From the IMG/VR virus record IMGVR_UViG_3300031555_003603, positions 1-64,000 of that record: a stretch of DNA of 64,000 nucleotides. One strand, written 5' to 3'. The notes under the pieces are model-generated. The model made no database searches. It was given only the letters and a program-made list of their open reading frames with translations, and was not told where the DNA came from. Source of the stretch: a virus. Below are positions 10,030-45,769 of this stretch, one piece after another; within the stretch, counting starts at the first letter, position 1, and each line of letters opens with the position of its first letter. Made by a program: the position numbers and the translations under genes.

Positions 10030-10290
10030 ATGGCTAAATATGAAACGCATGATTTTTATTGTTTGCGCTGTGGACGTGCTGGTGTTCCAGTAATGCGTAA
10101 ACTTGGTAAACAGCATGGAGAATTTCACAGAAAAAAATTATGGTGTCCTTACTGTAAGATGGAACTCAATCATATGGAAATTAGAAACCAACAGGAAAAA
10201 GAGATTTTTATGGAGGGATTCAATAATGGAGAATACAAAGAAGAAGCAAACGAAAGTGTTTGTCATGTGCGGGCCTGCTGGTTCGGGTAA
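10030..10290 (+). CDS. zinc-ribbon protein
   Basis: CLRCG...CPYCK; overlaps kinase gene start. Confidence 0.4.
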   Translation: MAKYETHDFYCLRCGRAGVPVMRKLGKQHGEFHRKKLWCPYCKMELNHMEIRNQQEKEIFMEGFNNGEYKEEANESVCHVRACWFG

Positions 10291-10738
10291 ATCCACTTGG
10301 CTTATCAAACAGATGAAGCCCAAAACCGATATTTGTATTTCTCGTGATAATATCCGATTTGGTTTATTGAAAGAGGGAGAAGATTATTTCGCTCATGAAA
10401 ATGATGTCAAAGAAATCTTTTATAATTCAATTGCCAACAATACCTCTGCCTCTTATTGGGAAAATATTTATATTGATGCCACTCATTTGAATCCAAAAGC
10501 AAGAAGAGCTACAATGTGGAACATTAGTAAGTATTGCTCTGTGGTGGCAGTTAGTTTCGAAGTGCCAGCTAAAGTGGCAATTGAACGCAATAAAAAGCGT
10601 TCTGGATTGGCTCGAGTTCCCGATAATGTAATCTGGAATATGAAAAGCCGCTATAAAATTCCTTCTCTAGATGAAGGATTTGATGAAATTTGGCATATTG
10701 ACGCTGAAGGTGTAATTAGAAAGGAGGTAAAAGAATGA
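10226..10738 (+). CDS. polynucleotide 5'-kinase (P-loop kinase)
   Basis: Walker A VFVMCGPAGSGKST immediately after start; GGAGGG RBS 8 nt upstream of ATG 10226. Confidence 0.55.
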   Translation: MENTKKKQTKVFVMCGPAGSGKSTWLIKQMKPKTDICISRDNIRFGLLKEGEDYFAHENDVKEIFYNSIANNTSASYWENIYIDATHLNPKARRATMWNISKYCSVVAVSFEVPAKVAIERNKKRSGLARVPDNVIWNMKSRYKIPSLDEGFDEIWHIDAEGVIRKEVKE

Positions 10739-11448
10739 GTAAAATTTTTGTAAGTTCTGATTATCATTTCAATCATGATAGAGAATTTATTTGGAAAGCC
10801 CGTGGATTCAATTCTGTTGATGAAATGAATGAAGCTATTATTACTAACCATAACTCGGTAGTTGGACCGGAAGATGATGTTTATATTCTTGGCGATATTT
10901 GCCTGGGTGGCGGAGTGCCCGGTATTACCGCCAAAAATCAAGCTCTTATTGAACGACTAAATGGTCGTATTCATATCATTCTTGGTAATCATGATACTCC
11001 TACCCGTCAAGAAATGTATGCCCTGTGCAAAAATGTATATAGTATCAAATATGCTGATATGTTTTGTTATCATGGTTATCATTTTTATCTATCTCATTTT
11101 CCTACTATCACTTCCAATTTGGAAAAAGAAACACTAAAGCAATGTACTATTTGTTTGTTCGGACATACCCATCAAAATAATAACTTCTTTATGGATATGC
11201 CTTTTATGTATCACGTCGGAGTAGATTCTCACAATTGCATTCCCGTCCTTTTAGATGATGCCATTGAAGATATGAAAACAAAGGTAAAAGAGTGCTTAAA
11301 TACTATTTAGCCTTTTATTGTATCCTTTCCACAAAAGCATTTGGGATGCGAAAAATGCGTATATGAATATAAATGTTATGACGCTCAATTTAATAGGCGT
11401 TGTAATAATTATAAAAAAGACCCACCTGATGGAGGATATTATGGATAA
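10735..11448 (+). CDS. calcineurin-like metallophosphoesterase with Cys-rich C-terminal extension read through TAG at 11308
   Basis: DYHFNH, GD, GNHD motifs; with TAG=Gln the frame continues 46 codons to TAA 11446-11448, abutting the RBS of the next gene; no terminator/promoter in 11311-11448. Confidence 0.45.
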
Positions 11449-11462
11449 AGGAGTGAAAAACA

Positions 11463-11732
11463 ATGAGTCATGCAATTAGGTATATTGATTATCATTGTTC
11501 TGTAAGCGAACACGCAATTCTTAAAGACATTGGAAGATTTGCTTATGACCCACAAGAAACTTCTGGTTATCATGGTAATATGAAGTTCCACAGAGAACCT
11601 GTATATAAGAACCGTGATGAAGCTGAAGCCGCAATTGAAAAGCTAGATAACGGCTGGTATGATGACCACGCTGTTATGTATCGAGAAGGCAGAAAGAAAT
11701 TCTGGCTCGTGAAAGTGGAGTGGCATTGCTAA
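11463..11732 (+). CDS. hypothetical protein
   Basis: AAAGGAG RBS. Confidence 0.5.
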   Translation: MSHAIRYIDYHCSVSEHAILKDIGRFAYDPQETSGYHGNMKFHREPVYKNRDEAEAAIEKLDNGWYDDHAVMYREGRKKFWLVKVEWHC

Positions 11733-12231: not shown

Positions 12232-12249
12232 TAAAAAGGAGAAAATAAA

Positions 12250-13773
12250 ATGCCCCAATTTTTGATGCCCGTTTTAACAACTGGCGGTATCGTAATCGCC
12301 GCAATCATCCTGTGCGTTATCCTCTTCAAGTCCTTTTGGAAAGTTGCTGGAACCAATGAAGTCCTTATTGTTTCTGGCCTTGGCAGGGTAAAAACTAAGA
12401 CCGGTGGCGGTATCTTTGTTCTTCCCATTGTTCAAAAGACACAACGAATGACCCTGGAAAACATTCAGGTTGACTTTACTTCCCGTAACGAAATTCCCAC
12501 AAAAGACGCCATTCATGTTCTAGTCGATGCGGTTGCCAATATGGCTATCTCTACTGACCCTGAACGCCAGAAAGTTGCGGCAAGTAAGTTCGCTGGATAT
12601 TCTATTCAGCAAATTCGTGATATTGTTATTCCTGTTCTGGAAGGTAATATTCGTGAAATTATTTCTCAAACCCAGTTCGAAGACCTTATTCGTGGAGATA
12701 AGAAAGCTTTCTCTGAACTGGTTATGGAAAATGTTACTCCCAACCTAGCAGACCTTGGTATTGACCTAACCACCTTCAATATTCAGAACTTCTCTGATAA
12801 GAATGGTGTTATTCAGGACCTTGGTATTGAAAACATCGAAAAAATTAAGAAAGAGGCCCAGATTGCGGCCGCAACTGCAAAGTCTGAAGTTGCTATCGCA
12901 CAGGCTAATGCCAATAAACTTGCTAATGAGGCCGAGGTAGCTGCCGCTACTGAAATTGCACAAAAGCAAACCGAATATGCTATTCGCAAAGCTGAGCTCC
13001 AGGAGCAGGCGGATACAGCTCAAGCCAAAGCTGATGCCGCTAAGGCCATCGAGGCAGAAAATCAGCGTAAAGCTCGTGAAATCGCTGAGGCAAACGCAAA
13101 CCTGGCTCGTCAGGAAAAGGCTATTGAACTACAGGAGCGCGAAGTTGCTATCCAAGAGCGTAAGCTAGAAGCAGAAGTAAAGAAGACTGCTGAGGCCAAG
13201 AAATACGCGGAGGCCCAAGCTGCTGATGCTAAGGCTTACGCCGCACAGAAGGCTGCGGAAGCTGAGCTGTACGAGCGTGAGCGTCAAGCTGAGGCTGCTC
13301 GTATTGAGGCTGAGAAGAAGGCTGCGGCAGACCTTGCTTTGGCTACCGCACAGGCAGAGTCCCAAAAGAAGTTGGCTGAGGCTATCGAGGCCGAAGGTAA
13401 GGCTCGTGCGGCCGCTGCTGAAGCGGAAGGTTTGGCCCGTGCAAAGGCTATTCAGGCTGAAGCCGAGGCTGAAGCAAAGGGTATGCTGGAGAAGGCTGAA
13501 GCTCTGAAGCAGTACGGCGACGCTGCCCGTCAGCAGATGGAACTGGAAGCCACCAAGGTCCTATACGAGCAACTGCCTAAGATTGCCGAAGCAATCGGTA
13601 AGGGTTATAATGGCGCTAACATCCACTTGATTGGTAACGATTCCGGTCAGCTGGCTGGCAACATGATGGGCAATATTACCCAAATCATTGAAGCCTTCAA
13701 GGGCTCTACTGGTATTGACCCTACTGCTGTTATTAGCGGTATGTTAGGCGCAAAAATCTCTGAAAACCAGTAA
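12250..13773 (+). CDS. flotillin-like SPFH/band-7 protein with long EA-rich coiled coil
   Basis: N-terminal TM helix, SPFH core, ~200 aa of A/E/K/Q repeats typical of flotillin (YqiK/FloT-like), Gly-rich C-terminus; elevated GC and biased codon use. Confidence 0.7.
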   Translation: MPQFLMPVLTTGGIVIAAIILCVILFKSFWKVAGTNEVLIVSGLGRVKTKTGGGIFVLPIVQKTQRMTLENIQVDFTSRNEIPTKDAIHVLVDAVANMAISTDPERQKVAASKFAGYSIQQIRDIVIPVLEGNIREIISQTQFEDLIRGDKKAFSELVMENVTPNLADLGIDLTTFNIQNFSDKNGVIQDLGIENIEKIKKEAQIAAATAKSEVAIAQANANKLANEAEVAAATEIAQKQTEYAIRKAELQEQADTAQAKADAAKAIEAENQRKAREIAEANANLARQEKAIELQEREVAIQERKLEAEVKKTAEAKKYAEAQAADAKAYAAQKAAEAELYERERQAEAARIEAEKKAAADLALATAQAESQKKLAEAIEAEGKARAAAAEAEGLARAKAIQAEAEAEAKGMLEKAEALKQYGDAARQQMELEATKVLYEQLPKIAEAIGKGYNGANIHLIGNDSGQLAGNMMGNITQIIEAFKGSTGIDPTAVISGMLGAKISENQ

Positions 13774-13880
13774 ATAAAGAACTAAATATCTAGCCTCGCG
13801 GGAGTTTCCTGCGAGGCTATTAGTCGTTGTGTTGATTACCCTGAACGGTCGTAGTTCCAAATTCCGCCCGCTATAGGAAT

Positions 13881-13918
13881 TTTTGTAGGAAAAAGCTCGA
13901 GTTTGCTTTTTCCTATTT
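13881..13918 (+). terminator. rho-independent terminator
   Basis: aggaaaaagc-tcgagttt-gctttttcct + TTTTTTTT. Confidence 0.65.
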
Positions 13919-13964
13919 TTTTTGATATAATGACTCTATAAATAAACTCAAGGAGGAAAATTTA

Positions 13965-14461: not shown

Positions 14462-14692
14462 TTGGAACAATTTATTTTAGGCATGCTTATGGTTCAAACT
14501 TTTTTCCCTTTGGTTGATGGCATTACATCAGTTATATTATCTGGACTTGAAGCTATAAAAGGTTATTTCGGCATGAAAATTGCTGAATATAATCATAGAA
14601 TACGAGAACTAAGTTCAGAAGAACCAGATGTTAAAAATTCAATAGGTTTTTCATATAATAACCAGGAGGAAGAAGAGGATGAATAGGTATAA
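14462..14692 (+). CDS. small hydrophobic protein (TTG start; terminal TAG read through to TAA)
   Basis: TAAGGAG RBS 6 nt upstream of TTG. Confidence 0.25.
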
Positions 14693-15929
14693 ATTTTATG
14701 ATACAAGCAGTTTATTATTACTTTCCGATGAAGAGTTGAAAGAAGAATTTATAATTTCTTCTATCACTCTAGCTGAATTAGAAAGTATAAAAACTTCTCA
14801 CTCAAAAGATTACGAAACCAAGGCGGCCGCTAGAAATGTATTACACCAATTATTTGAAAATCAAGGTAAATATAAGGTGGTTATTTATCAACCTGCCTTT
14901 TTAAATTTATTAGATGGATATGAATTTGAAATCAATAATGATATTCGTATTTTGGCATCTGCGCTTTGGGCAGACCAAAATATTGCGCCAGATGATATTA
15001 CTTTTATAACTAATGATTTAGCTTTAAGTAATATTGCTAATTTATTTTTTGGAAATGATAGTATCGATTATATAACTACAAAAGAAGACAATTATAGTGG
15101 TTATAAAGAAATACGTATGAATCAAAATGAAATGGTAGCTTTTTATATGGAGCCCAATGATAATTGTTTTAATTTGCTGCCAAATGAATATCTTATTATT
15201 TATGAATCTGAAACTGGTAACATAGTAGATAGACTTTGTTGGACAGGAACTGAATATCGTCATTTAAATTATAATAATTTTAAATCAAAATGGTTTGGCG
15301 ACGTTCGTCCAATGTCTGGGGATACATATCAAATGATGGCGGCTGATAGTCTAATGAATAATTAGATTACCATGTTAAAAGGACCCGCTGGAACTGGTAA
15401 AACTTATTTAGCACTTGCTTATTTGCTTCATAAGCTTGACCGTAATAAAATCGATAAAATTATTGTATTTTGTAATACAGTAGCTACAAAAGGTTCGGCT
15501 AAGCTTGGATATTTACCCGGCTCTCGTGATGAAAAATTACTTGATTCTCAAATTGGCAATCTACTTTCAAGTAAATTAGGGGATAGAACTGAAGTAGAGC
15601 GTATGATAGAAGATGGTAAACTACTGTTGCTGCCAATGTCTGATATTCGAGGATATGATACTAGTGGAATGAAAGCAGGCATTTATATTTCTGAGGCACA
15701 AAATATGGATATTTCGCTAATGAAACTTGCTCTTCAACGCATTGGAGAAGATAGTATTTGTATTATTGATGGTGACCCATTAACTCAGGTTGATGATAAT
15801 AGCTTTGCTGGTAATAATAATGGCATGCGCCGTGCTTCACAAGTATTTCGTGGAAACGATATATATGGTGAAGTAGAATTAAAAACAATTCATAGAAGTA
15901 AAATTGCTAATATTGCTCAAAAAATGTGA
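14679..15929 (+). CDS. phoH: PhoH-like ATPase with N-terminal PIN domain (YlaK-like); TAG at 15363 at the domain junction
   Basis: ORF-track 14679..15365 and 15372..15929 share a frame; Walker A GPAGTGKT follows the TAG. Confidence 0.65.
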
Positions 15930-15975: not shown

Positions 15976-17646
15976 ATGAATGGAATTATAAAAACAAATA
16001 TAGATTTAGTTAATGCAGCAGTTGAAGTTGCAAAAAATTATAAAACCCTATATGTAAATGGTTGCTTTGGAGCGCCAATGAACGATGGAAATAAACAATA
16101 TTTTTGTAATAATACATCATATAATAAAAGACCAGAACGCACTCAAATGATTATGAATGCCAGTTCTGACACTTTTGGATTTGATTGTGTTTGTTTTATA
16201 AAAGGATTGTTATGGGGTTGGAAAGGTGATATTAATCATCCATAGGGTGGAGCCAAATATCAAAGTAATGGTGTACCTGATATTACCGAATCTGGAATGT
16301 TAAATGTATGTACTAATATTAGTAATGATTTTAATAATATAGAAGTTGGAGAATATTTATGGATGCAAGGACATTGTGGCATTTATATAGGAAATGGGCT
16401 TGCTGTTGAATGTACTCCCGCTTGGAGTAATAATGTACAAATCACAGCATGTAATAGAAATGTTGCCGGATATAATCGACGCAATTGGACAAAACATGGT
16501 AAATTACCATATATCTCATATACTCCAGTAGAACTCAAACCATATACCCAAGAAGATTTTATTAAAGACATATAGAGCATTCTCGGAGTTCCAGTTACTG
16601 GAAAATGTGATGATGAGACTCTAAATAAAACTATAACCGTTTCTGAGTTTGTAAATAATAGACATGCTATTGTTGCTCCTATACAAAAATATTTATATAG
16701 TTTAGGATATACTTCCGTTGGTAGTGCCGATGGAGAAGCTGGTCCTAAATTCACTCAGGCAGTAAAAGATTATTAGAAATCTTTTGGTGGAGAAGCTGAT
16801 GGAGAAGTTACTGCTAAAGAAACCACTTGGAAAAAATTATTAAATTATGTTCCAACTCATGTTTGTAATTTTGTACCTAAAATTACAAAACAAGCTAGCT
16901 GTACTGAAAAAGGAATTCAAACTTATTCATGTTCATGTGGAAAATCTTATACAAAAGAAATTCCAATGCTTAATCATAATTATAATTAGAAGATTATTGC
17001 ACCGACCTGTGAAAATGATGGATATACTAATAACACTTGCGTCCGTTGTGGTCATAGTTTTAATAATAATATAATTCAAGCAACTGGACATAATTATATT
17101 ACAACCACAATAGAACCTACTTATGAAACAGAGGGTTACGATTTACATATTTGTCAAATATGTAACAATAATTATAAAGATAACATAATTAACCCCCTAT
17201 AGAAAGAAGAACCAGAAATTACACCTGAGCCTCGGCCTATAGTTCCTGAGCCAGTATTAAAAGATAATTGGGAAATAAATGATGAGGCTAAAATTATAGC
17301 CGGTGCCCGTTTTGTAACTGGTAAAGAAATTTTATCATGGATTGTAAAAAATAAAGTTTATATTAGAGATTTGAGAGAGCATGATTCAGCTGTTATCTCT
17401 ACTCAAAAAGTAGGACCTATTACAGGAGCAGTTTATTTAAAAGATTTATTACCCTATAGTGATAAATTATATGATATTAGTATTACCGCAAATCTTCTAA
17501 ATGTAAGAGAAAATCCGAACACTAATTCAAAAATTATAAATCAAATTAAAAAAGATACAAAACACACAATTATTGAAGAATAGGGCGAATGGGGACATAT
17601 TGCAAATTCCGGTTGGATTATGCTTCAATATACAAGAAAGGTATGA
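15976..17646 (+). CDS. multidomain endolysin: NlpC/P60 peptidase + PG_binding_1 + Cys-rich repeats + SH3b; 6 in-frame TAG
   Basis: GFDCVCF (Cys) and QGHCGIYIG (His) NlpC/P60 motifs; AVKDYQKSFGGEADGEV is the PG_binding_1 signature and its conserved Gln is encoded by TAG; repeated C-x-C-G zinc-ribbon-like modules; SH3b-like GEWGHIANSGWIMLQY; ends TGA 17644-17646. Confidence 0.6.
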
Positions 17647-25466: not shown

Positions 25467-25949
25467 ATGGCAATGAGTGAAAATTCTGTAAAGATTCTAA
25501 ATTATTTGAAGGAGAACCATGGTAAGAACATGACCAGCGCTGATGTTGCTGAGGCTCTTGACCTGGCTAAGGCCACTGTTAATGGCGCATTTACCGCTAT
25601 GCAGAAGAAGGGTCTGGGCGCTCGCGTAGACGCTGAAATTCCTGGCGCAGTTGATGTATCTTTCTTGACTGTTACCGATGATGGTCGCGCTGCTGATATC
25701 AGCGAGATGGGCGAGACTGTTAACAAGATTATCACCTATCTTTCCAACACTACCGACCATGTTACTTTGGACGACCTGGCTACTGCCATCGGTGTTGAAA
25801 AGCGTAGCGTAAATGGTTCTTTCAATGCTCTTGTAAAGAAGGGTCTATGCGCTCGTACCGCTGCTAAGGTTGAGGCTATGGTTCCTGTTAAGTATTTGGT
25901 TCTGACCGATGCTGGCATGGCTTTTGACCCCGCTGCTGACGCTGAATAA
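25467..25949 (+). CDS. tandem winged-helix DNA-binding protein (two internal repeats), high-GC biased codon usage
   Basis: Repeats VKILNYLKENHGKNMTSADVAEALDLAKATVNGAFTAMQKKGLGAR / NKIITYLSNTTDHVTLDDLATAIGVEKRSVNGSFNALVKKGLCAR. Confidence 0.5.
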   Translation: MAMSENSVKILNYLKENHGKNMTSADVAEALDLAKATVNGAFTAMQKKGLGARVDAEIPGAVDVSFLTVTDDGRAADISEMGETVNKIITYLSNTTDHVTLDDLATAIGVEKRSVNGSFNALVKKGLCARTAAKVEAMVPVKYLVLTDAGMAFDPAADAE

Positions 25950-26011: not shown

Positions 26012-27097
26012 ATGCTGGAACTAATAATCGCGTTAATTCTCGGTTTAGCCATTGGCTTTGGCATTGGTTGGCTAATTATGCGCAAACTTCCACAAGATAA
26101 AATCCGAGAAATAAACTATGAACGATTACGTGAAGAATAGGCGATGTTTGAGCATCGCAAGCGAGAAGAAGAAAAAGAGATTGAAGAGATTCTGAATAAA
26201 AGAGTAGAAGCTTATAAAGATTATGAAAATACTCGCAGAGATTGCGATGAAATAAATCGTCGCATTTCTTTATTGACTGCTCAAAAAGATGTATTATCTA
26301 ATGATGTGACTCATTTAGCAAATTAGCGTGAGGATATTTCTCGTAGCTTAGAGCAATCGCGCAAAGATGCAGAAAATACTGCGAAAACTTTCCTAAAACA
26401 ACAAATGGAACTTGTCCAAGAGCAACTTGATAAGTCCTTAGAAGTAATTGCTGCAAAATATCAAGAGGATGAAAATGCTTGTAAAGAACATTATCTCCAA
26501 ATGGCCAAAGAATGTGCAGAAGACTTCCAAGTTGAAATGAATAATCTAACTCATGATTATACAATTTTACAGCAAGCTTTTAGTGAGTTAAAACTGAATG
26601 TTGATACTGCTGTGGCAGCTTCCAAGAGGGAAGAAGAAATACGACAGGAAAAGAATTTCTATCGTTTAGTTCTTCCAGAAAGCGACCTTAATGAAATCGC
26701 GCAATTGCGTGCTGTTGAACCTTATTTACGAGATAAAGAAGCTCTAAACAAGGTTATTTGGAAAGTTTATTATGAAAAACCCTACACCGATATGATTGGT
26801 CGAGTTGTGGGTCAAAAAGTCAAGACTGGTATTTATAAAATTACTAATATTGAAAATCAAATGTGCTATGTAGGATAGGCTGCCGATATAGCGAGTCGGT
26901 GGAAATAGCATATTAAACGTGGACTAGGCGCGGAACCGCCTACACGCAATAAACTATATCCAGTTATGTAGTCTGTTGGAGTAGAAAATTTTACTTTTGA
27001 AATTATTGAAGAATGTGACAGAGATAGATTAGATGCACAAGAAGATTATTGGCAAGAATATTTTCATGCCAAAGATTTTGGTTATAGTATAAAATAA
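26012..27097 (+). CDS. GIY-YIG nuclease-domain protein with N-terminal TM helix and coiled coil; 5 in-frame TAG
   Basis: ORF-track 26144..26326 and 26405..26878 plus unlisted tail share one frame; C-terminal GIYKITNIENQMCYVGQAADIASRWKQH...E..YW GIY-YIG signature. Confidence 0.5.
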
Positions 27098-29371: not shown

Positions 29372-30304
29372 ATGAAAGCAAAGATTAATAATAAGACACA
29401 TATTGAAGGTTATTTGTATCAGCACACTTTGGAAATGAAAGAGTCTGGTCCTAACTCTAAGAATCCCGGAACAGTATTTATTAGTGGTAATGTTGATATT
29501 GCTACTGATAATGATATGACAAATATTGTTACCGTTCATTATACTTATACTACTGCTACTACTAGCACCGGTAAAGCCAATAGCACTTTCAATGTATTGA
29601 AGGATATTATTGATGGTAAGCTATGTAGCGTTATGGGTCATGGTGCAGATAAGGCCGCTATGATTGCTATTGATTCTGCCATCGGTCTAAATGAGTTCTA
29701 TTCCGACCGCAATGGTAAGGAAGAGCTTGTTAGTGCTAAGCGCAATGAAGGCGGTTTCGCAGTTGTAAAATCTTCTATCAATGAAGATGAAACCAAGCGT
29801 AACACTTTTGATGTCGATATGGTTATTACTGGTAGCCATATGATTGAAGCCGACGATGAAAAGGGCTTGCCCGAAAAGATGATTATTCATGGAGCCATCT
29901 TTGACTTCCGCAATTCTCTTCTTCCTGTCGAGTTCTCTGTTTTGAATCCTAATGCTATCAACTATTTTGAAGGCTTAGGCGCCTCTCAGGATGAACCTGT
30001 CTTCACCCGTTTACAGGGCCGTTTGGTTTCCGAAGTTGTTAAGCGCACTGTGACTGAAGAGTCTGCTTTTGGCGAACCCATCGTTAAGGAATATTCCAGC
30101 ACTCGTAAAGATTATGTTATTACTTGGGCCGCTGCCGAGCCCTATGCCTGGGAAGATGAGTCCGGTATTACTGCTGCTGAGCTAAAGAAGGCTATGGCTG
30201 ACCGTGAAGTTTATCTTGCTGGTGTTAAATCTCGCCAAGATGAATATAAGGCTTCTAAGGGCCAAGCTGCTGCCGCTCCTGCTACCGGTGGATTTAATTT
30301 CTAA
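29372..30304 (+). CDS. putative ssDNA-binding protein partnering Sak4-like ATPase
   Basis: Position immediately upstream of AAA_24 ATPase, high-expression codon bias, Gly/Ala-rich tail ending GGFNF; assignment is positional inference. Confidence 0.3.
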   Translation: MKAKINNKTHIEGYLYQHTLEMKESGPNSKNPGTVFISGNVDIATDNDMTNIVTVHYTYTTATTSTGKANSTFNVLKDIIDGKLCSVMGHGADKAAMIAIDSAIGLNEFYSDRNGKEELVSAKRNEGGFAVVKSSINEDETKRNTFDVDMVITGSHMIEADDEKGLPEKMIIHGAIFDFRNSLLPVEFSVLNPNAINYFEGLGASQDEPVFTRLQGRLVSEVVKRTVTEESAFGEPIVKEYSSTRKDYVITWAAAEPYAWEDESGITAAELKKAMADREVYLAGVKSRQDEYKASKGQAAAAPATGGFNF

Positions 30305-30327
30305 TCCACCAATAGGAGGATTGAGTT

Positions 30328-31314
30328 ATGGCTATTAATTTATTGGCTTTGAAACCCCATAAAGTCTCTCGTGACCTTTCTGGATATATTACTTATATCT
30401 ACGGCGAAGGCAAAACTGGTAAAACCACTCTTGCCTCAAAAATGCCAAAGGCTCTTTTACTAGCCTTTGAGCGTGGTTATAATGCCATTCCTGGTATTAT
30501 TCCTCAAGATATCACTACCTGGGGTGAACTAAAACAGGTTATTCGTGAATTGAAGAAGCCTGAAGTCCAAGAGGTATATAAGAGTATTCTTGTAGATACT
30601 GTTGATATTGCTGCTGGACTTTGTGAAAAGTATGTTTGTTCTCAGGCCGGCGTTGAGAAGCTAAGTGACATCCCCTATGGCCAAGGTTGGACCAAAGTCA
30701 AAAAGGAATTTGAAGAGGCTTTCCGTTCTATTACTCAGTTGGGCTATGCCGTTGTGTTTATTTCTCATGTAAAGGAAAAGACATTTAAGAAAAAGGATGG
30801 TACTGAATATAATCAGTACATTCCTTCTTGTCCCTCTACTTACAATGAGATTGCTAAGAATATGGCTGACATTTACGCTTTTGCTGAAAAGTATGAAGAT
30901 AATGGAACCGCTAAAGTTCGTTTGGTGTTACGCTCTGTTGATAATAGTGCAGACACAGGTTGCCGTTTCAAGTATATTACTCCTGTCATTGACTTTGAGT
31001 ATAATGAATTGGTAAAAGCTTTGAATGATGCTATCGATAAGGAATCTCAGGTTACTGATGCCTCTCTGTTTACAAATGAAAGAGCTACCGCTGTTGTAGC
31101 AGCTACTTTTGATTATGATGCTTTGATGCGTGAATTTGGTGATATTGTTGGAGACCTTATGAGTAAGGACCCCACTTACTTCCAGCCTCGTATTACCCAA
31201 ATTGTTGATTCCATTTTGGGTAAGGGTAAGAAAGTATCCGATGCTACAATTGACCAAGCTGAATTAGTTAGCTTGATTATTGATGAAATCAAGGCAACCT
31301 TGATTAATAAGTAA
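30328..31314 (+). CDS. Sak4-like RecA-fold recombination ATPase (AAA_24 family)
   Basis: Walker A YGEGKTGKTT, Walker B ILVDTVD. Confidence 0.55.
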   Translation: MAINLLALKPHKVSRDLSGYITYIYGEGKTGKTTLASKMPKALLLAFERGYNAIPGIIPQDITTWGELKQVIRELKKPEVQEVYKSILVDTVDIAAGLCEKYVCSQAGVEKLSDIPYGQGWTKVKKEFEEAFRSITQLGYAVVFISHVKEKTFKKKDGTEYNQYIPSCPSTYNEIAKNMADIYAFAEKYEDNGTAKVRLVLRSVDNSADTGCRFKYITPVIDFEYNELVKALNDAIDKESQVTDASLFTNERATAVVAATFDYDALMREFGDIVGDLMSKDPTYFQPRITQIVDSILGKGKKVSDATIDQAELVSLIIDEIKATLINK

Positions 31315-41884: not shown

Positions 41885-44800
41885 TTGTTAGAATATCCTG
41901 GTTCATTACATAACCATACCGAAATGAGTAATCAGCGTCTTCGTGATTCAATTAACCGAATTGAAGAATTAGTTGATTATGCGATTGAGTTAGGACATAG
42001 TGTTATTGCTTTTACTGAACACGAAACCGTATCTAACGCAATTAAAATAGAAAATTATTATGATAAAATAAAAAAAACTCATCCAGATTTTAAAATCATC
42101 TTAGGCAATGAGATTTATCTATGTCGTGATGATATGACCGCAGAAAATTTCCAAAAGGGAGAGGATAGGTACTTCCACTTTATTCTTTTGGCTAAGGATG
42201 CAGAAGGTCATAAACAAATTAGAGAATTGTCAACACGCGCCTGGATGCGGTCATGGATGAATGGTAAAATGCGTCGAGTACCTACTTATTATCAAGATTT
42301 GATTGATGTTATTGGTGCTAATCCCGGGCATGTAATTGGCTCAACAGCTTGTTTGGGCGGCTTTCTTGGAAGTAAAATCCTACAATGGCATACTCGTGGT
42401 AAAGACCAATATTTTTATAGTAAAATAAAAAACTGGTGCTGTCAAATGGAAGGAGTTTTTGGCAAAGGTAATTTTTATTTGGAAATGCAACCTTCCGCCA
42501 ATGAAGAGCAAGTTATAGTAAATAAAACTATTTATTTACTTTCGCAAGAACTAAATATTCCTTTTATTATTACAACAGATAGTCATTATTGCCGTAAAGA
42601 AGATGCGCCTATTCACAAAGCTTTTTTAAATGCACAAGAAGGCGACCGTGAAGTTGATTCTTTCTATGCAACAACTTATCTAATGGGAACTCAAGAAATA
42701 CAAGATTATATGGACAATTTTACCAATGAAGTGTTTCAAGAGGCTTATGAAAATATTTTACAAATTAGAAACAGTTGTGAAGATTATAGTTTAAAAAAAC
42801 CTTTGAAAATTCCTTCTCTTCAATGGAAAATTCCAACAATTCAATCTGTTTCAGAGTATTGGTTTGAAAAAATTCCATATTTGAGAACTTTTCATTCTTC
42901 TACTTTTGATGGAGATAGACGACTTGTAGAGTTAGTTGTTGAAAAGTTAGAATCTAACCCAAAATTACAAACCCAAGAAATTTATGACGAGATAAATGAT
43001 AATCTAAGAATTACTTGGGTATCCTCAGAGGTAAATAAAGCTCATTGGAGTGCTTACTTCTTGAATTTGCAAAAGATTATTGATATATGTTGGGAAGCTG
43101 GTACAGTTGTAGGACCCGGACGCGGTTCTGGCGTAGGCTTCTTATTACTATATATTTTAGATATAATTCAAATTAACCCTATGTGGGAAACAACTCGTAC
43201 ATTTAGTTGGCGTTTCTTAAACCCCGACCGCGTTTCTGTTCTTGATATTGATACTGATATTGAGGGAAGTCGACGCGGAACAGTCCTTCAAGCATTACGC
43301 GACTATTATGGTGAAGATAGAGTAGCTAATGTCGTTACTTTTGGAACAGAAAAATCCAAGAGTGCAATTCAAACAGCAGCTCGTGGATTAGAAATTGATA
43401 ATGATATAGCACTTTATATTTCTTCATTAATTCCCGCTGACCGTGGACAAACTAGAACATTAGCACAATGCTATTATGGCGATGAAGAAAATGATTTCAA
43501 ACCTATTCCTCTTTTTGTCAAAGAAATGAATAACTATCCAGAACTATGGCAAGTGGCACAACGCATTGAGGGACTTATTTGTCGCGTTGGCGAACACGCA
43601 GGTGGTGTTATCTTTGTTGATGAACCCTTTACTAATTCAACTGCTTTGATGAAAGTTCCAAATGGCGATATAGTGACCCAGTTTGACTTACACGACTGCG
43701 AAGCCGCAAGTCTGATTAAAATTGACTTACTATCAGTTGAAGGTTTAGATAAAATTCATACTTGTCTTGACTTATTATGTGATAATGGTTTTATTGATAG
43801 AGCAAATACCTTGCGTGAAACTTATGAAAAAACTATAGGTATTTATAAATTAGAGCGCGAAGCACCAGAAATGTGGAAAATGGTTTGGGACCATAAAATC
43901 CAGGCATTATTTCAAATGGAAAAGCAAAGTGGCGTTTAGGGTATTGCTTTGACACATCCTGAATCGGTAGACGACTTAGCGGTTCTAAACTCTGTTATTC
44001 GTTTGATGGCACAAGAAAAGGGCGCGGAACAGCCATTAAATAAATATGCTCGTTTTAAAAATAACATAAATCTTTGGTATAAAGAAATGGAAGACTATGG
44101 TCTTACGAAAGAAGAGCAAACTCTTCTTGAGCCAATAGTCAAACAATCTTATGGTATCTGCGAATCTCAAGAAAAGTTTATGCAGTTAGTTCAGATGCCC
44201 GAATGCGGCGGATTTAATCTGACTTGGGCGGATAAATTACGTAAAGCTATTGCTAAGAAGAATCCTAAAGGCTTCTTGGAATTACAAGATGAATATTATA
44301 AAAATATTGATGAAAAAGGTTTGAGCAAAAATCTTTGTAATTATGTTTGGAATGTTCTTGTATCTACAAGTAAGGGATATGGATTTAACGCCTCACATAC
44401 CCTTGCTTATTCACTTGTAGGATTACAAGAAATGAATTTAGCCTATCGTTTTCCTATTATTTTTTGGAATACAGCATGCCTGATTACAGATAGTGGTGGC
44501 GTAGAAGATGCTGATGAAGATGGAAAAAATAATAATTACGATAAGATTGCTACCGCTATTGGTAAAATGAAGCAAGCAGGCATTGAAGTTATGCCTCCTG
44601 ATGTAAATAAATCTCAATATACTTTTGCTCCCGATGTTGAAGAAAATAAAATAGTTTTCGGACTACGCGGCATGCTAAATGTAGGCGAAGAAGTAATTGC
44701 TCGTATTATTGAAAATCGTCCTTACGCTTCACCAAAAGACTTTTTGCAAAAAGTTAATCCAAATAAGCAAGCTATGATTTCTCTTATCAAGGGCGGAGCT

Positions 44801-45769
44801 TTTGATGAAATGGAAGACCGTAAATTTATTATGGCTTGGTATATTTGGGAAACTTGTGATAAAAAAGCTCGTATTACTTTACAAAATATGCCCGGGCTTA
44901 TCAAATATGGTATATTGCCAGAAGATACAGAAGAAAGAGTTATGGCGCGACGCGTTTATGAATTTAATCGTTATCTAAAAGCCATAACAAAGGCCGATGA
45001 ATCTGCCTATAAAGATTATTATACTTTAGACAGCCGAGCTCTTGATTTTCTAAATGAATTAGAGCTAGATGAATTAGCAACTTCTGATAATTTAGCTTGG
45101 TTCTTACCAATTAAGTCTTGGGAAAAGATTTATCAAAAATGGATGAATGTGTTTCGAGATTGGATTGCTGCGGATAAAGACAATATTCTTCGTAATCTAA
45201 ATGAAAAAATCTTTATGGAAGATTGGAATAAATATGCAAGCGGTTCTATCTCAGCTTGGGAAATGGAAGCTCTATGTTTCTATTATCATGACCACGAACT
45301 TGCCAATGTTAATAACGGCAAATATGGTTTAGTAGACTTCTTTACTTTACCAGAAGACCCAATAGTAGATAGAGTATTTTATAAAGGTGATAAAGAAATC
45401 AAAATGTTTAAGCTTTGTAAAATTTGCGGTACTTGCATAGCTAAAGACAAGAATAAATCTATGGTTACTCTATTGACTACTTCTGGCGTGGTAAATATTA
45501 AATTTAGAAAAGAATATTTTTCTATTTTCGATAAGCAAATCTCTGAACGTCAATTTGATGGTACTAAAAAAGTAATTGAAAAATCTTGGTTCAATCGTGG
45601 TAATATGATTTTGGTTCAAGGCATTCGTTCCGGAGATAGCTTTATTCCCAAGAAATATGCTTCATCGGGCGGACATCAATTATACAAAATCAATGAGCTA
45701 TTACCAAGTGGCGATTTAGTATTACAAACTGAAAGATATCAAGGAGGATATGAAGAAGATGTAGACTAA
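41885..45769 (+). CDS. dnaE: DNA polymerase III alpha subunit (DnaE-type, PHP domain); single in-frame TAG at 43937
   Basis: ORF-track 41885..43939 and 43949..45769 same frame; PHP LHNHTEMS, palm GRGSGVGFLLLY; TTG start. Confidence 0.75.

Follow-up and report, generated by a model that had tools for sequence, protein, structure and literature searches.

A flotillin-family SPFH protein is encoded by large TAG-recoded phages of the gut

Flotillins have been studied as organisers of cellular membranes. Here we describe a flotillin-family gene at positions 12,250 to 13,773 of a 64,000-nucleotide stretch of viral DNA (IMG/VR record IMGVR_UViG_3300031555_003603, positions 1 to 64,000; hereafter the window), which belongs to a large, uncultivated, TAG-recoded gut phage. 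The closest described systems include flotillin-1 and flotillin-2, which two reports present as a membrane-attached 44-mer dome (PMC11260169, PMC13000311). Other viral SPFH or Band-7 proteins, such as those of Rhizobium phage Pasto, Vibrio phage pVa5, Streptomyces phage StarPlatinum, phage GIB1 and giant viruses, are SPFH-fold membrane proteins too, but most are ~170-340 residues long, stomatin- or HflC-like, and devoid of a long hairpin or C-terminal domain. The 2026 authors who reported the GIB1 SPFH lipoprotein called the reason for its presence unclear (PMC13239085). In BFVD, short SPFH proteins were scattered across phages and giant viruses, and one entry only (A0A679DKI1) aligned with the window protein over its full length. 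Our literature search found no paper on phage flotillins as a family, the mentions being annotations of single genomes. What is new is a phage-specific member of the flotillin family that is widespread in uncultivated gut phages.

The coding sequence (12250..13773, plus strand, as are all of its features given here) runs from ATG to TAA, encodes 507 amino acids with no internal stop, and follows a canonical Shine-Dalgarno sequence (AAGGAG, 12236..12241) read from the sequence 8 nt 5' of the ATG. The initial annotation had proposed a transmembrane (TM)-anchored SPFH domain with a long Glu/Ala-rich coiled coil, a layout borne out by Band_7 matching, residue composition and AlphaFold2 (AF2) modelling. 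Hydropathy and the AF2 model both place a TM helix at residues ~6-27 (12265..12330), the sole segment whose 19-residue Kyte-Doolittle hydropathy (KD19) exceeds 1.6 (maximum 2.8), and a TM-like N-terminus is retained in every phage relative examined. The SPFH/Band_7 domain occupies residues 32-210 (12343..12879) according to Pfam PF01145 (46.9 bits against a cut-off of 23.6, E 4.2e-12), the AF2 model and fold matching. It leads into an Ala/Glu/Lys-rich helical hairpin (residues ~187-422, 12808..13515), delimited by composition, AF2 and alignment to flotillin-1, in which residues 201-420 are 34% Ala, 18% Glu and 11% Lys and residues 193-382 are free of Pro. A Gly-rich helical domain that aligns to the C-terminus of flotillin-1 completes the protein (residues ~424-506, 13519..13767). 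The AF2 monomer model, built from a 73-sequence alignment reaching down to ~30% identity, had a mean predicted local distance difference test (pLDDT) score of 76, with 80-92 in the SPFH domain; it comprised a TM helix (5-29), an alpha/beta SPFH domain (30-186), two long helices (187-290 and 317-422) and C-terminal helices, with a hairpin turn (288-316) of low confidence.

When all PDB sequences were searched with phmmer, flotillin-1 and flotillin-2 were the sole matches. Human flotillin-1 was matched at E 1.8e-39 over two stretches, phage residues 32-339 and 381-490, the latter aligning to flotillin-1 residues 307-415 with an independent E-value of 1.2e-05; flotillin-2 followed at E 3e-32. The AF2 model gave the same picture in a Foldseek search of the PDB, where the top four matches were chains of the flotillin-1/2 cage (9l3g, 9bq2; E 7e-20 to 4e-17, ~470 columns), with HflK/C, stomatin, prohibitin, erlin and QmcA-YbbJ trailing by some eight orders of magnitude (E ~1e-10 to 1e-12). 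In both searches the hairpin aligned to the wall helices of flotillin-1. The SPFH domain fitted the Band 7 domain of mouse flotillin-2 (1win) with a root-mean-square deviation of 2.4 Å, and 3bk6 and 4fvf also matched. The NCBIfam FloT model (NF058507) scored 199.3 bits (E 1.3e-58), and because this is far under the equivalog cut-off of 700, the gene is best assigned to the flotillin family but not to FloT orthologues. Of the likeness to YqiK/FloT that had been noted from the sequence alone, the FloT part stands at the level of the family, through the solved flotillins, the fold and the FloT match, and fails at the level of the FloT equivalog; with both Band_7 and FloT models matching, the SPFH call itself came through the profile searches intact. 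A PHROGs match to a tape-measure family (E 0.009) was dismissed as a spurious, compositional coiled-coil similarity.

Compared with the human flotillin-1/2 cage, the phage protein is homologous over its full length, sharing the SPFH domain, the wall helices, the C-terminal part and also the Ala/Glu-rich character of the helices, and it would by inference share assembly into a membrane-attached dome. It differs in being only ~25% identical and in having, where the human proteins have a hairpin and acylation anchor, a true TM helix at the N-terminus. In addition, human Flot1 and Flot2 form a hetero-oligomer, whereas the phage has a single gene, so a homo-oligomer is expected; a flotillin hidden Markov model run over all window open reading frames (ORFs) found this one SPFH gene and no HflK/HflC-like pair. 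With bacterial proteins of the FloT (YuaG/YqiK) type it shares architecture, length and an N-terminal TM segment followed by an 'xGxxEALIVSG'-like entry into the SPFH domain, and the FloT-type proteins of Bacillus and Enterococcus are ~30% identical to it. A protein annotated as 'flotillin family protein' in phage csAssE-Sib (OR575929) is 26-28% identical and lies in a different genomic context, and for these reasons it is regarded as an independent acquisition.

Whether such a gene is rare depends on the collection searched. Among 50,697 deposited phage records, seven had a weak flotillin match (best identity 41%, csAssE-Sib included), which agrees with the initial view that a phage copy is uncommon, but this view does not extend to large metagenomic phages: a two-motif scan of IMG/VR found at least 118 flotillin loci, mostly on contigs of 100-245 kb. 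Metagenomic protein clusters 84-98% identical to the window flotillin numbered more than 120; such proteins made up the best 120 matches and came from contigs of up to 221 kb. One 402-kb contig (IMGVR_UViG_3300032167_000002; loci L007, L012, L026 and L031) held two different flotillins and two different major vault protein (MVP) homologues; these loci match separate contigs of ~172 and ~177 kb, and the contig is probably a concatenation of two phage genomes.

Both the position and the sequence of the gene are conserved. Relatives keep the order AAA_33 kinase, Metallophos, small ORFs, flotillin, two small ORFs, PIN-PhoH, lysin, RNase H and gyrase. With PIN-PhoH rather than the flotillin as the anchor, and among the 18 IMG/VR loci that had at least 4.5 kb of upstream sequence, the flotillin lay 1-3 kb upstream of PIN-PhoH in 15; the other three had no flotillin within 8 kb on either side, and the gene is thus near-core yet dispensable in this clade. 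The three flotillin-less loci are IMG/VR 3300045988_084596, _081499 and _093451 (L219, L220 and L222), and two of these three contigs still have an MVP homologue. Against six relatives, each of the three regions (SPFH domain, coiled coil and C-terminus) had a dN/dS of ~0.06, while synonymous divergence (dS) was above 1 and near saturation, a pattern that points to strong purifying selection. Flotillin identity to the window copy was 87%, 61% or 40% among relatives, and the divergence of flanking genes was roughly constant. However, dS between the window and its nearest relative (L003) varied from 0.23 to 1.4 between genes. Because the genome is mosaic in general, the discordance between flotillin and backbone is real but not unique to the flotillin, and we do not claim allele replacement specific to this gene.

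The slot is occupied by two classes of flotillin, distinguished by the motifs 'WKVAGTNEVLIVSG' in type A, to which the window copy belongs, and 'YxKAPPDxAxIISG' in type B. Type A differs from the bacterial FloT type in having no detectable Pfam Flot domain (PF15975); in type-B relatives this domain reached 37.3 bits in one locus (L013; cut-off 27) and stayed under the cut-off in two others (L010 and L015). By tblastn, the nearest organism-labelled flotillins were those of the Clostridia Acetoanaerobium (43% identity) and Subdoligranulum (42%), in alignments that spanned the SPFH domain and the proximal helix. The flotillin of Subdoligranulum variabile carries the type-B motif and is 50-54% identical to type-B phage copies, as against 38-42% over the full length of the type-A window copy. 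Since the bacterial copy is nearer to type B, type A is a derived branch, so far found on phage-like contigs only. The phage family as a whole appears to be of bacterial origin, derived from a flotillin of the Clostridia type. The S. variabile locus (L207; OY725857.1, 220105-236941) served as the bacterial reference arrangement. It lies in a 334-kb record labelled as a plasmid, although the stretch is chromosomal in character, with 60% GC and flanking glycolysis genes, and its cluster consists of an NfeD-like membrane protein (by inspection), a stomatin-like SPFH gene and then the flotillin. The phage flotillin, in contrast, has neither of these partners adjacent.

The window itself encodes GyrB, GyrA, an NAD-dependent ligase, ThyA, DnaB, a primase-like protein, RecJ, an SF1 helicase, a DnaE-type polymerase, NrdD, PIN-PhoH, RNase H, RNA ligase, holin, lysin and tail proteins. 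A megablast search of INPHARED with 10 kb around the flotillin returned nothing, leaving the phage without a close relative among the 50,697 deposited genomes and recorded in metagenomes alone; SPbeta-like and Enterocloster phages, the nearest isolates, have polymerases ~38% identical to its own. In-frame TAG codons interrupt many of its genes (one in PIN-PhoH, six in the lysin, one in the DnaE-like polymerase, 11, 4 and 18 in tail genes and five in a GIY-YIG ORF), including those at 14679-15929, 15976-17583, 41885-45769 and 56603-63825, so that ORF calling with the standard code fragments them, and several of the genes broken in the window are single ORFs in relatives. At six TAG positions compared with two relatives, a small sample, Q stood three times and K, Y, V and others in the remaining comparisons. 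The code is probably one in which TAG is read as Gln (code 15), a recoding known in gut phages. No tRNA genes were found within the 64-kb window, which is only part of the genome. The flotillin contains no TAG.

The phage probably infects Clostridia. The TAG-recoded group phAss-1 has Clostridia/Eubacteriales as its predicted host, and the MVP-bearing ctOa11 is among its relatives (PMC10607447). Phage-like contigs that bear the flotillin (L041-L047) were binned into metagenome-assembled genomes (MAGs) labelled Acutalibacteraceae, Bacilli, Eubacterium, Candidatus Nanosyncoccus and Bacteroidales; such incompatible labels indicate mis-binned phage contigs and are weak evidence of host.

Upstream of the flotillin lie an RNA ligase (5980-7416), an AAA_33 kinase (10103-10738) and a calcineurin-like phosphoesterase (10735-11448), which together look like an RNA-repair module of the Pnkp/ligase type. 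One relative (L001) instead has NAD-salvage genes there (NAMPT, NAD synthase, NADAR and SIR2), and the region resembles a counter-defence or auxiliary island. Closer to the flotillin, and usually just 5' of it, an 89-residue protein (11463-11732) is 74-92% identical in six relatives, compared with 37-60% for their other neighbours, and has no Pfam or PADLOC match. A 66-residue upstream ORF with a TM segment was considered as an NfeD-like or conserved partner and rejected, being common to the closest relative only and without a Pfam match. PADLOC models matched neither the flotillin nor its small neighbours. Immediately past the flotillin stop, a perfect 9-bp GC-rich hairpin (TAGCCTCGC ... GCGAGGCTA, 13791-13819) without a T-run precedes a terminator-like hairpin; the latter (13885..13926, plus strand), ~110 nt 3' of the stop, has 12 bp and a T-run and is followed by a TGnTATAAT-like element, identified by consensus match only. 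No Rfam family was matched anywhere in the window. Elsewhere, reading through TAG yields an ORF of 361 residues (26012-27097) in which, unusually, an N-terminal TM helix is joined to a long coiled coil and, at the C-terminus, to a GIY-YIG homing-endonuclease-like domain.

Both the flotillin and an MVP-like gene had been singled out in the initial annotation for elevated GC and biased codons, and this was confirmed: the flotillin has a GC content of 0.48 against ~33% in its neighbours, and its GC at third codon positions (GC3) is 0.44 against ~0.2-0.25. Its codons favour AAG over AAA, CAG over CAA, and CTG, with no ATA, AGA or GGA, a pattern repeated in the MVP-like gene. First-position GC (GC1) reaches 0.74 in the Ala-rich coiled coil, where part of the excess comes from Ala and Glu codons. 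Of 16 related loci, in genomes of ~33-42% GC, 13 had the flotillin as one of the two genes highest in GC3, and the GC3 of the flotillin followed the background, from 0.37 in phages of 33% GC to 0.61 in those of 41% GC. Because GC3 tracks the background, dS is saturated and dN/dS is ~0.06, we discarded recent horizontal transfer as an explanation of the high GC, which reflects Ala-rich composition and selected codon usage, not foreign origin.

More broadly, the window divides into two codon classes, a small TAG-free set that favours AAG, CAG and CTG and has no ATA, and a remainder with AT-rich third positions. The former comprises the MVP-like gene (504-2966), the flotillin (12250-13773), a tandem winged-helix (wHTH) protein (25467-25949), a 310-residue protein (29372..30304) with the adjoining Sak4-like annealing protein (29372-31314 together), and a gene at 54420-55268. 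This last gene, on the minus strand near the holin (56195..56584), encodes a membrane protein of 282 residues rich in Gly, Asn and Cys, with one hydrophobic segment and a C-terminal Cys cluster, and matches phrog_16490. The tail genes (4-18 TAGs each), the lysin and the homing-endonuclease genes are AT-rich and TAG-bearing. The signature of the TAG-free set may reflect selection for efficient translation of abundant proteins made without a suppressor.

The MVP-like gene (504..2966, plus strand) is real, although interrupted in the window: a single 821-codon frame contains an in-frame TGA at 1848-1850. MVP_shoulder was matched at 1920..2966 with E 2.7e-19, and the joined frame gave 67 bits (E 2e-18) for MVP_shoulder and 29.1 bits, against a cut-off of 28.8, for Vault_3. 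The TGA replaces an invariant TGG (Trp) in a frame that is intact, at 815-857 codons, in 13 of 13 IMG/VR relatives, and TGA serves as a normal stop elsewhere in the window; because the frame breaks at a Trp that every relative keeps, the codon is either a nonsense allele or a read-through site, or else an error of assembly. Viral MVPs have been described in the gut Caudoviricetes ctOa11 and ct2Ri15 in a preprint that does not mention flotillin or SPFH (Santos et al., 2023; 10.1101/2023.11.10.566534). The window gene resembles these in its ~820 residues, its vault repeats, shoulder and cap helix, and its occurrence in large Bacillota-associated gut phages, but differs from them in its TGA.

The SPFH-like character that had been ascribed to the MVP shoulder holds at the fold level, where the flotillin model matched major vault protein with a Foldseek E of ~1e-7, but not at the sequence level: hhalign of the phage flotillin against MVP families gave 30% probability, in the helical part only, and homology between flotillin and MVP shoulder in sequence was accordingly not supported. 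Motif-based scans of contigs of at least 100 kb, which give bounds only, found flotillin on at least 45, MVP on 51 and both on at least 14. Where both occur they lie ~10-25 kb apart (on at least 14 large contigs and on 21 contigs altogether) and are never adjacent. Their co-occurrence across related phages, which the initial annotation had suggested checking, is thus frequent but not obligate.

What might the flotillin do? We tentatively favour, while stopping short of calling it probable, the reading that it is a functional flotillin of the phage lineage whose membrane cage keeps the membrane of the infected cell organised through replication. That the protein would form a membrane cage is well supported by homology. 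The N-terminal helix would insert it into the host cytoplasmic membrane, the hairpin and C-terminal domain would drive homo-oligomerisation into a dome-like SPFH cage like that of flotillin-1/2, and this cage would fence off membrane microdomains without NfeD and stomatin partners. Belonging to a small group of pre-late proteins that are probably abundant, it might keep the membrane organised, intact and energised over a long replication phase once host expression has been subverted, and so delay failure of the membrane until translation of the TAG-dependent late lysis genes. The earlier suggestion that the phage may manipulate how the host organises its membrane or compartments is a reasonable inference. 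Several observations weigh against this reading, and its weakest step is the physiological role. Pfam Flot (PF15975) was not detected in the window protein at E<=1. Neither an NfeD nor a protease gene lies beside the flotillin, the flanking small ORFs have no Pfam match and no client is indicated, and no conserved membrane partner was found nearby among the relatives examined. Absence from three of the 18 anchored loci means that the gene is not essential to the clade. Codon usage and the lack of TAG are the only indications of high expression and early timing. Finally, flotillin identity that is decoupled from the backbone hints at allele turnover, which would equally suit a function in an arms race.

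An arms race is the substance of one rival account, in which the flotillin acts in conflict at the membrane, either in superinfection exclusion, by stopping the genomes of competing phages from entering, or in shielding or repair against host abortive-infection effectors that perforate or depolarise the membrane. The counter-defence-like region upstream (RNA ligase, AAA_33 kinase and Metallophos here, NAD-salvage genes in L001), the decoupled subtypes in a single slot and the membrane-stress responses in which SPFH proteins act (PMC8581546) all speak for it. Yet dN/dS is very low with no diversifying selection seen within type A, PADLOC has no match for the flotillin, and in a mosaic genome (dS 0.23 to 1.4 between the window and L003) the decoupling does not single out this gene; we consider this account unlikely. 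We give no greater credence to a cage that regulates proteolysis by enclosing a host membrane protease, e.g., FtsH, and thereby shields phage proteins or redirects degradation, in the manner of HflK/C around FtsH or of stomatin and QmcA paired with NfeD-type proteases. HflK/C modulates the degradation of lambda cII by FtsH, flotillins of B. subtilis are linked to FtsH, and cages of HflK/C-FtsH, QmcA-YbbJ and stomatin are among the fold matches (E 1e-10 to 1e-12), but the best matches are flotillins and not HflK/C, the SPFH gene is the only one in the window, and no NfeD or protease gene adjoins it.

More doubtful still is a two-component compartment, in which the flotillin dome docks or nucleates a vault-like cytosolic MVP shell that sequesters cargo. 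Both proteins belong to the cage-forming SPFH fold class, both genes have the unusual TAG-free codon signature, and both occur in the same region, ~10-25 kb apart, on at least 14 large contigs. It is a rather improbable but conceivable extension that two SPFH-fold cage builders, made in bulk before the late phase, enclose membrane patches or cargo such as defence factors or intermediates of replication or assembly. Were this true, bacterial viruses would have a counterpart of the raft and vault organisation of eukaryotes, and phages a second way of building compartments besides the chimallin nucleus, and interest in the pair would rise sharply if flotillin and vault homologue acted together. 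Each gene is nevertheless often found alone in the counts given above, two flotillin-less anchored relatives retain MVP, huge MVP-bearing phages (LR7565xx) have no flotillin match, the window MVP has a premature TGA, and the genes are never adjacent. The least probable account makes the gene a passenger, recently captured from a host and without a role in infection, or a mis-assembled bacterial fragment. A GC content of 48% against ~33% in neighbours and the bacterial origin of the family could be taken to favour it. It is essentially excluded because the slot is filled in many independent assemblies, dS is saturated with dN/dS at ~0.06, GC3 tracks the background of each phage while remaining top-ranked, Ala and Glu codons supply much of the GC excess (GC1 of 0.74 in the coiled coil), and even the nearest labelled copy from bacteria shares only ~40% identity.

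The phage copy, which lacks NfeD and stomatin partners, would be a naturally minimal flotillin that may be of use in structural and synthetic-biology work on SPFH cages. Together, flotillin and vault homologue provide a gene pair for asking whether phages outside Chimalliviridae build protein compartments. Moreover, a viral flotillin that is under such strong constraint, is apparently expressed at a high level and recurs across a common gut-phage clade suggests that the organisation of the host membrane is itself a selectable step in the infection of Gram-positive anaerobes.

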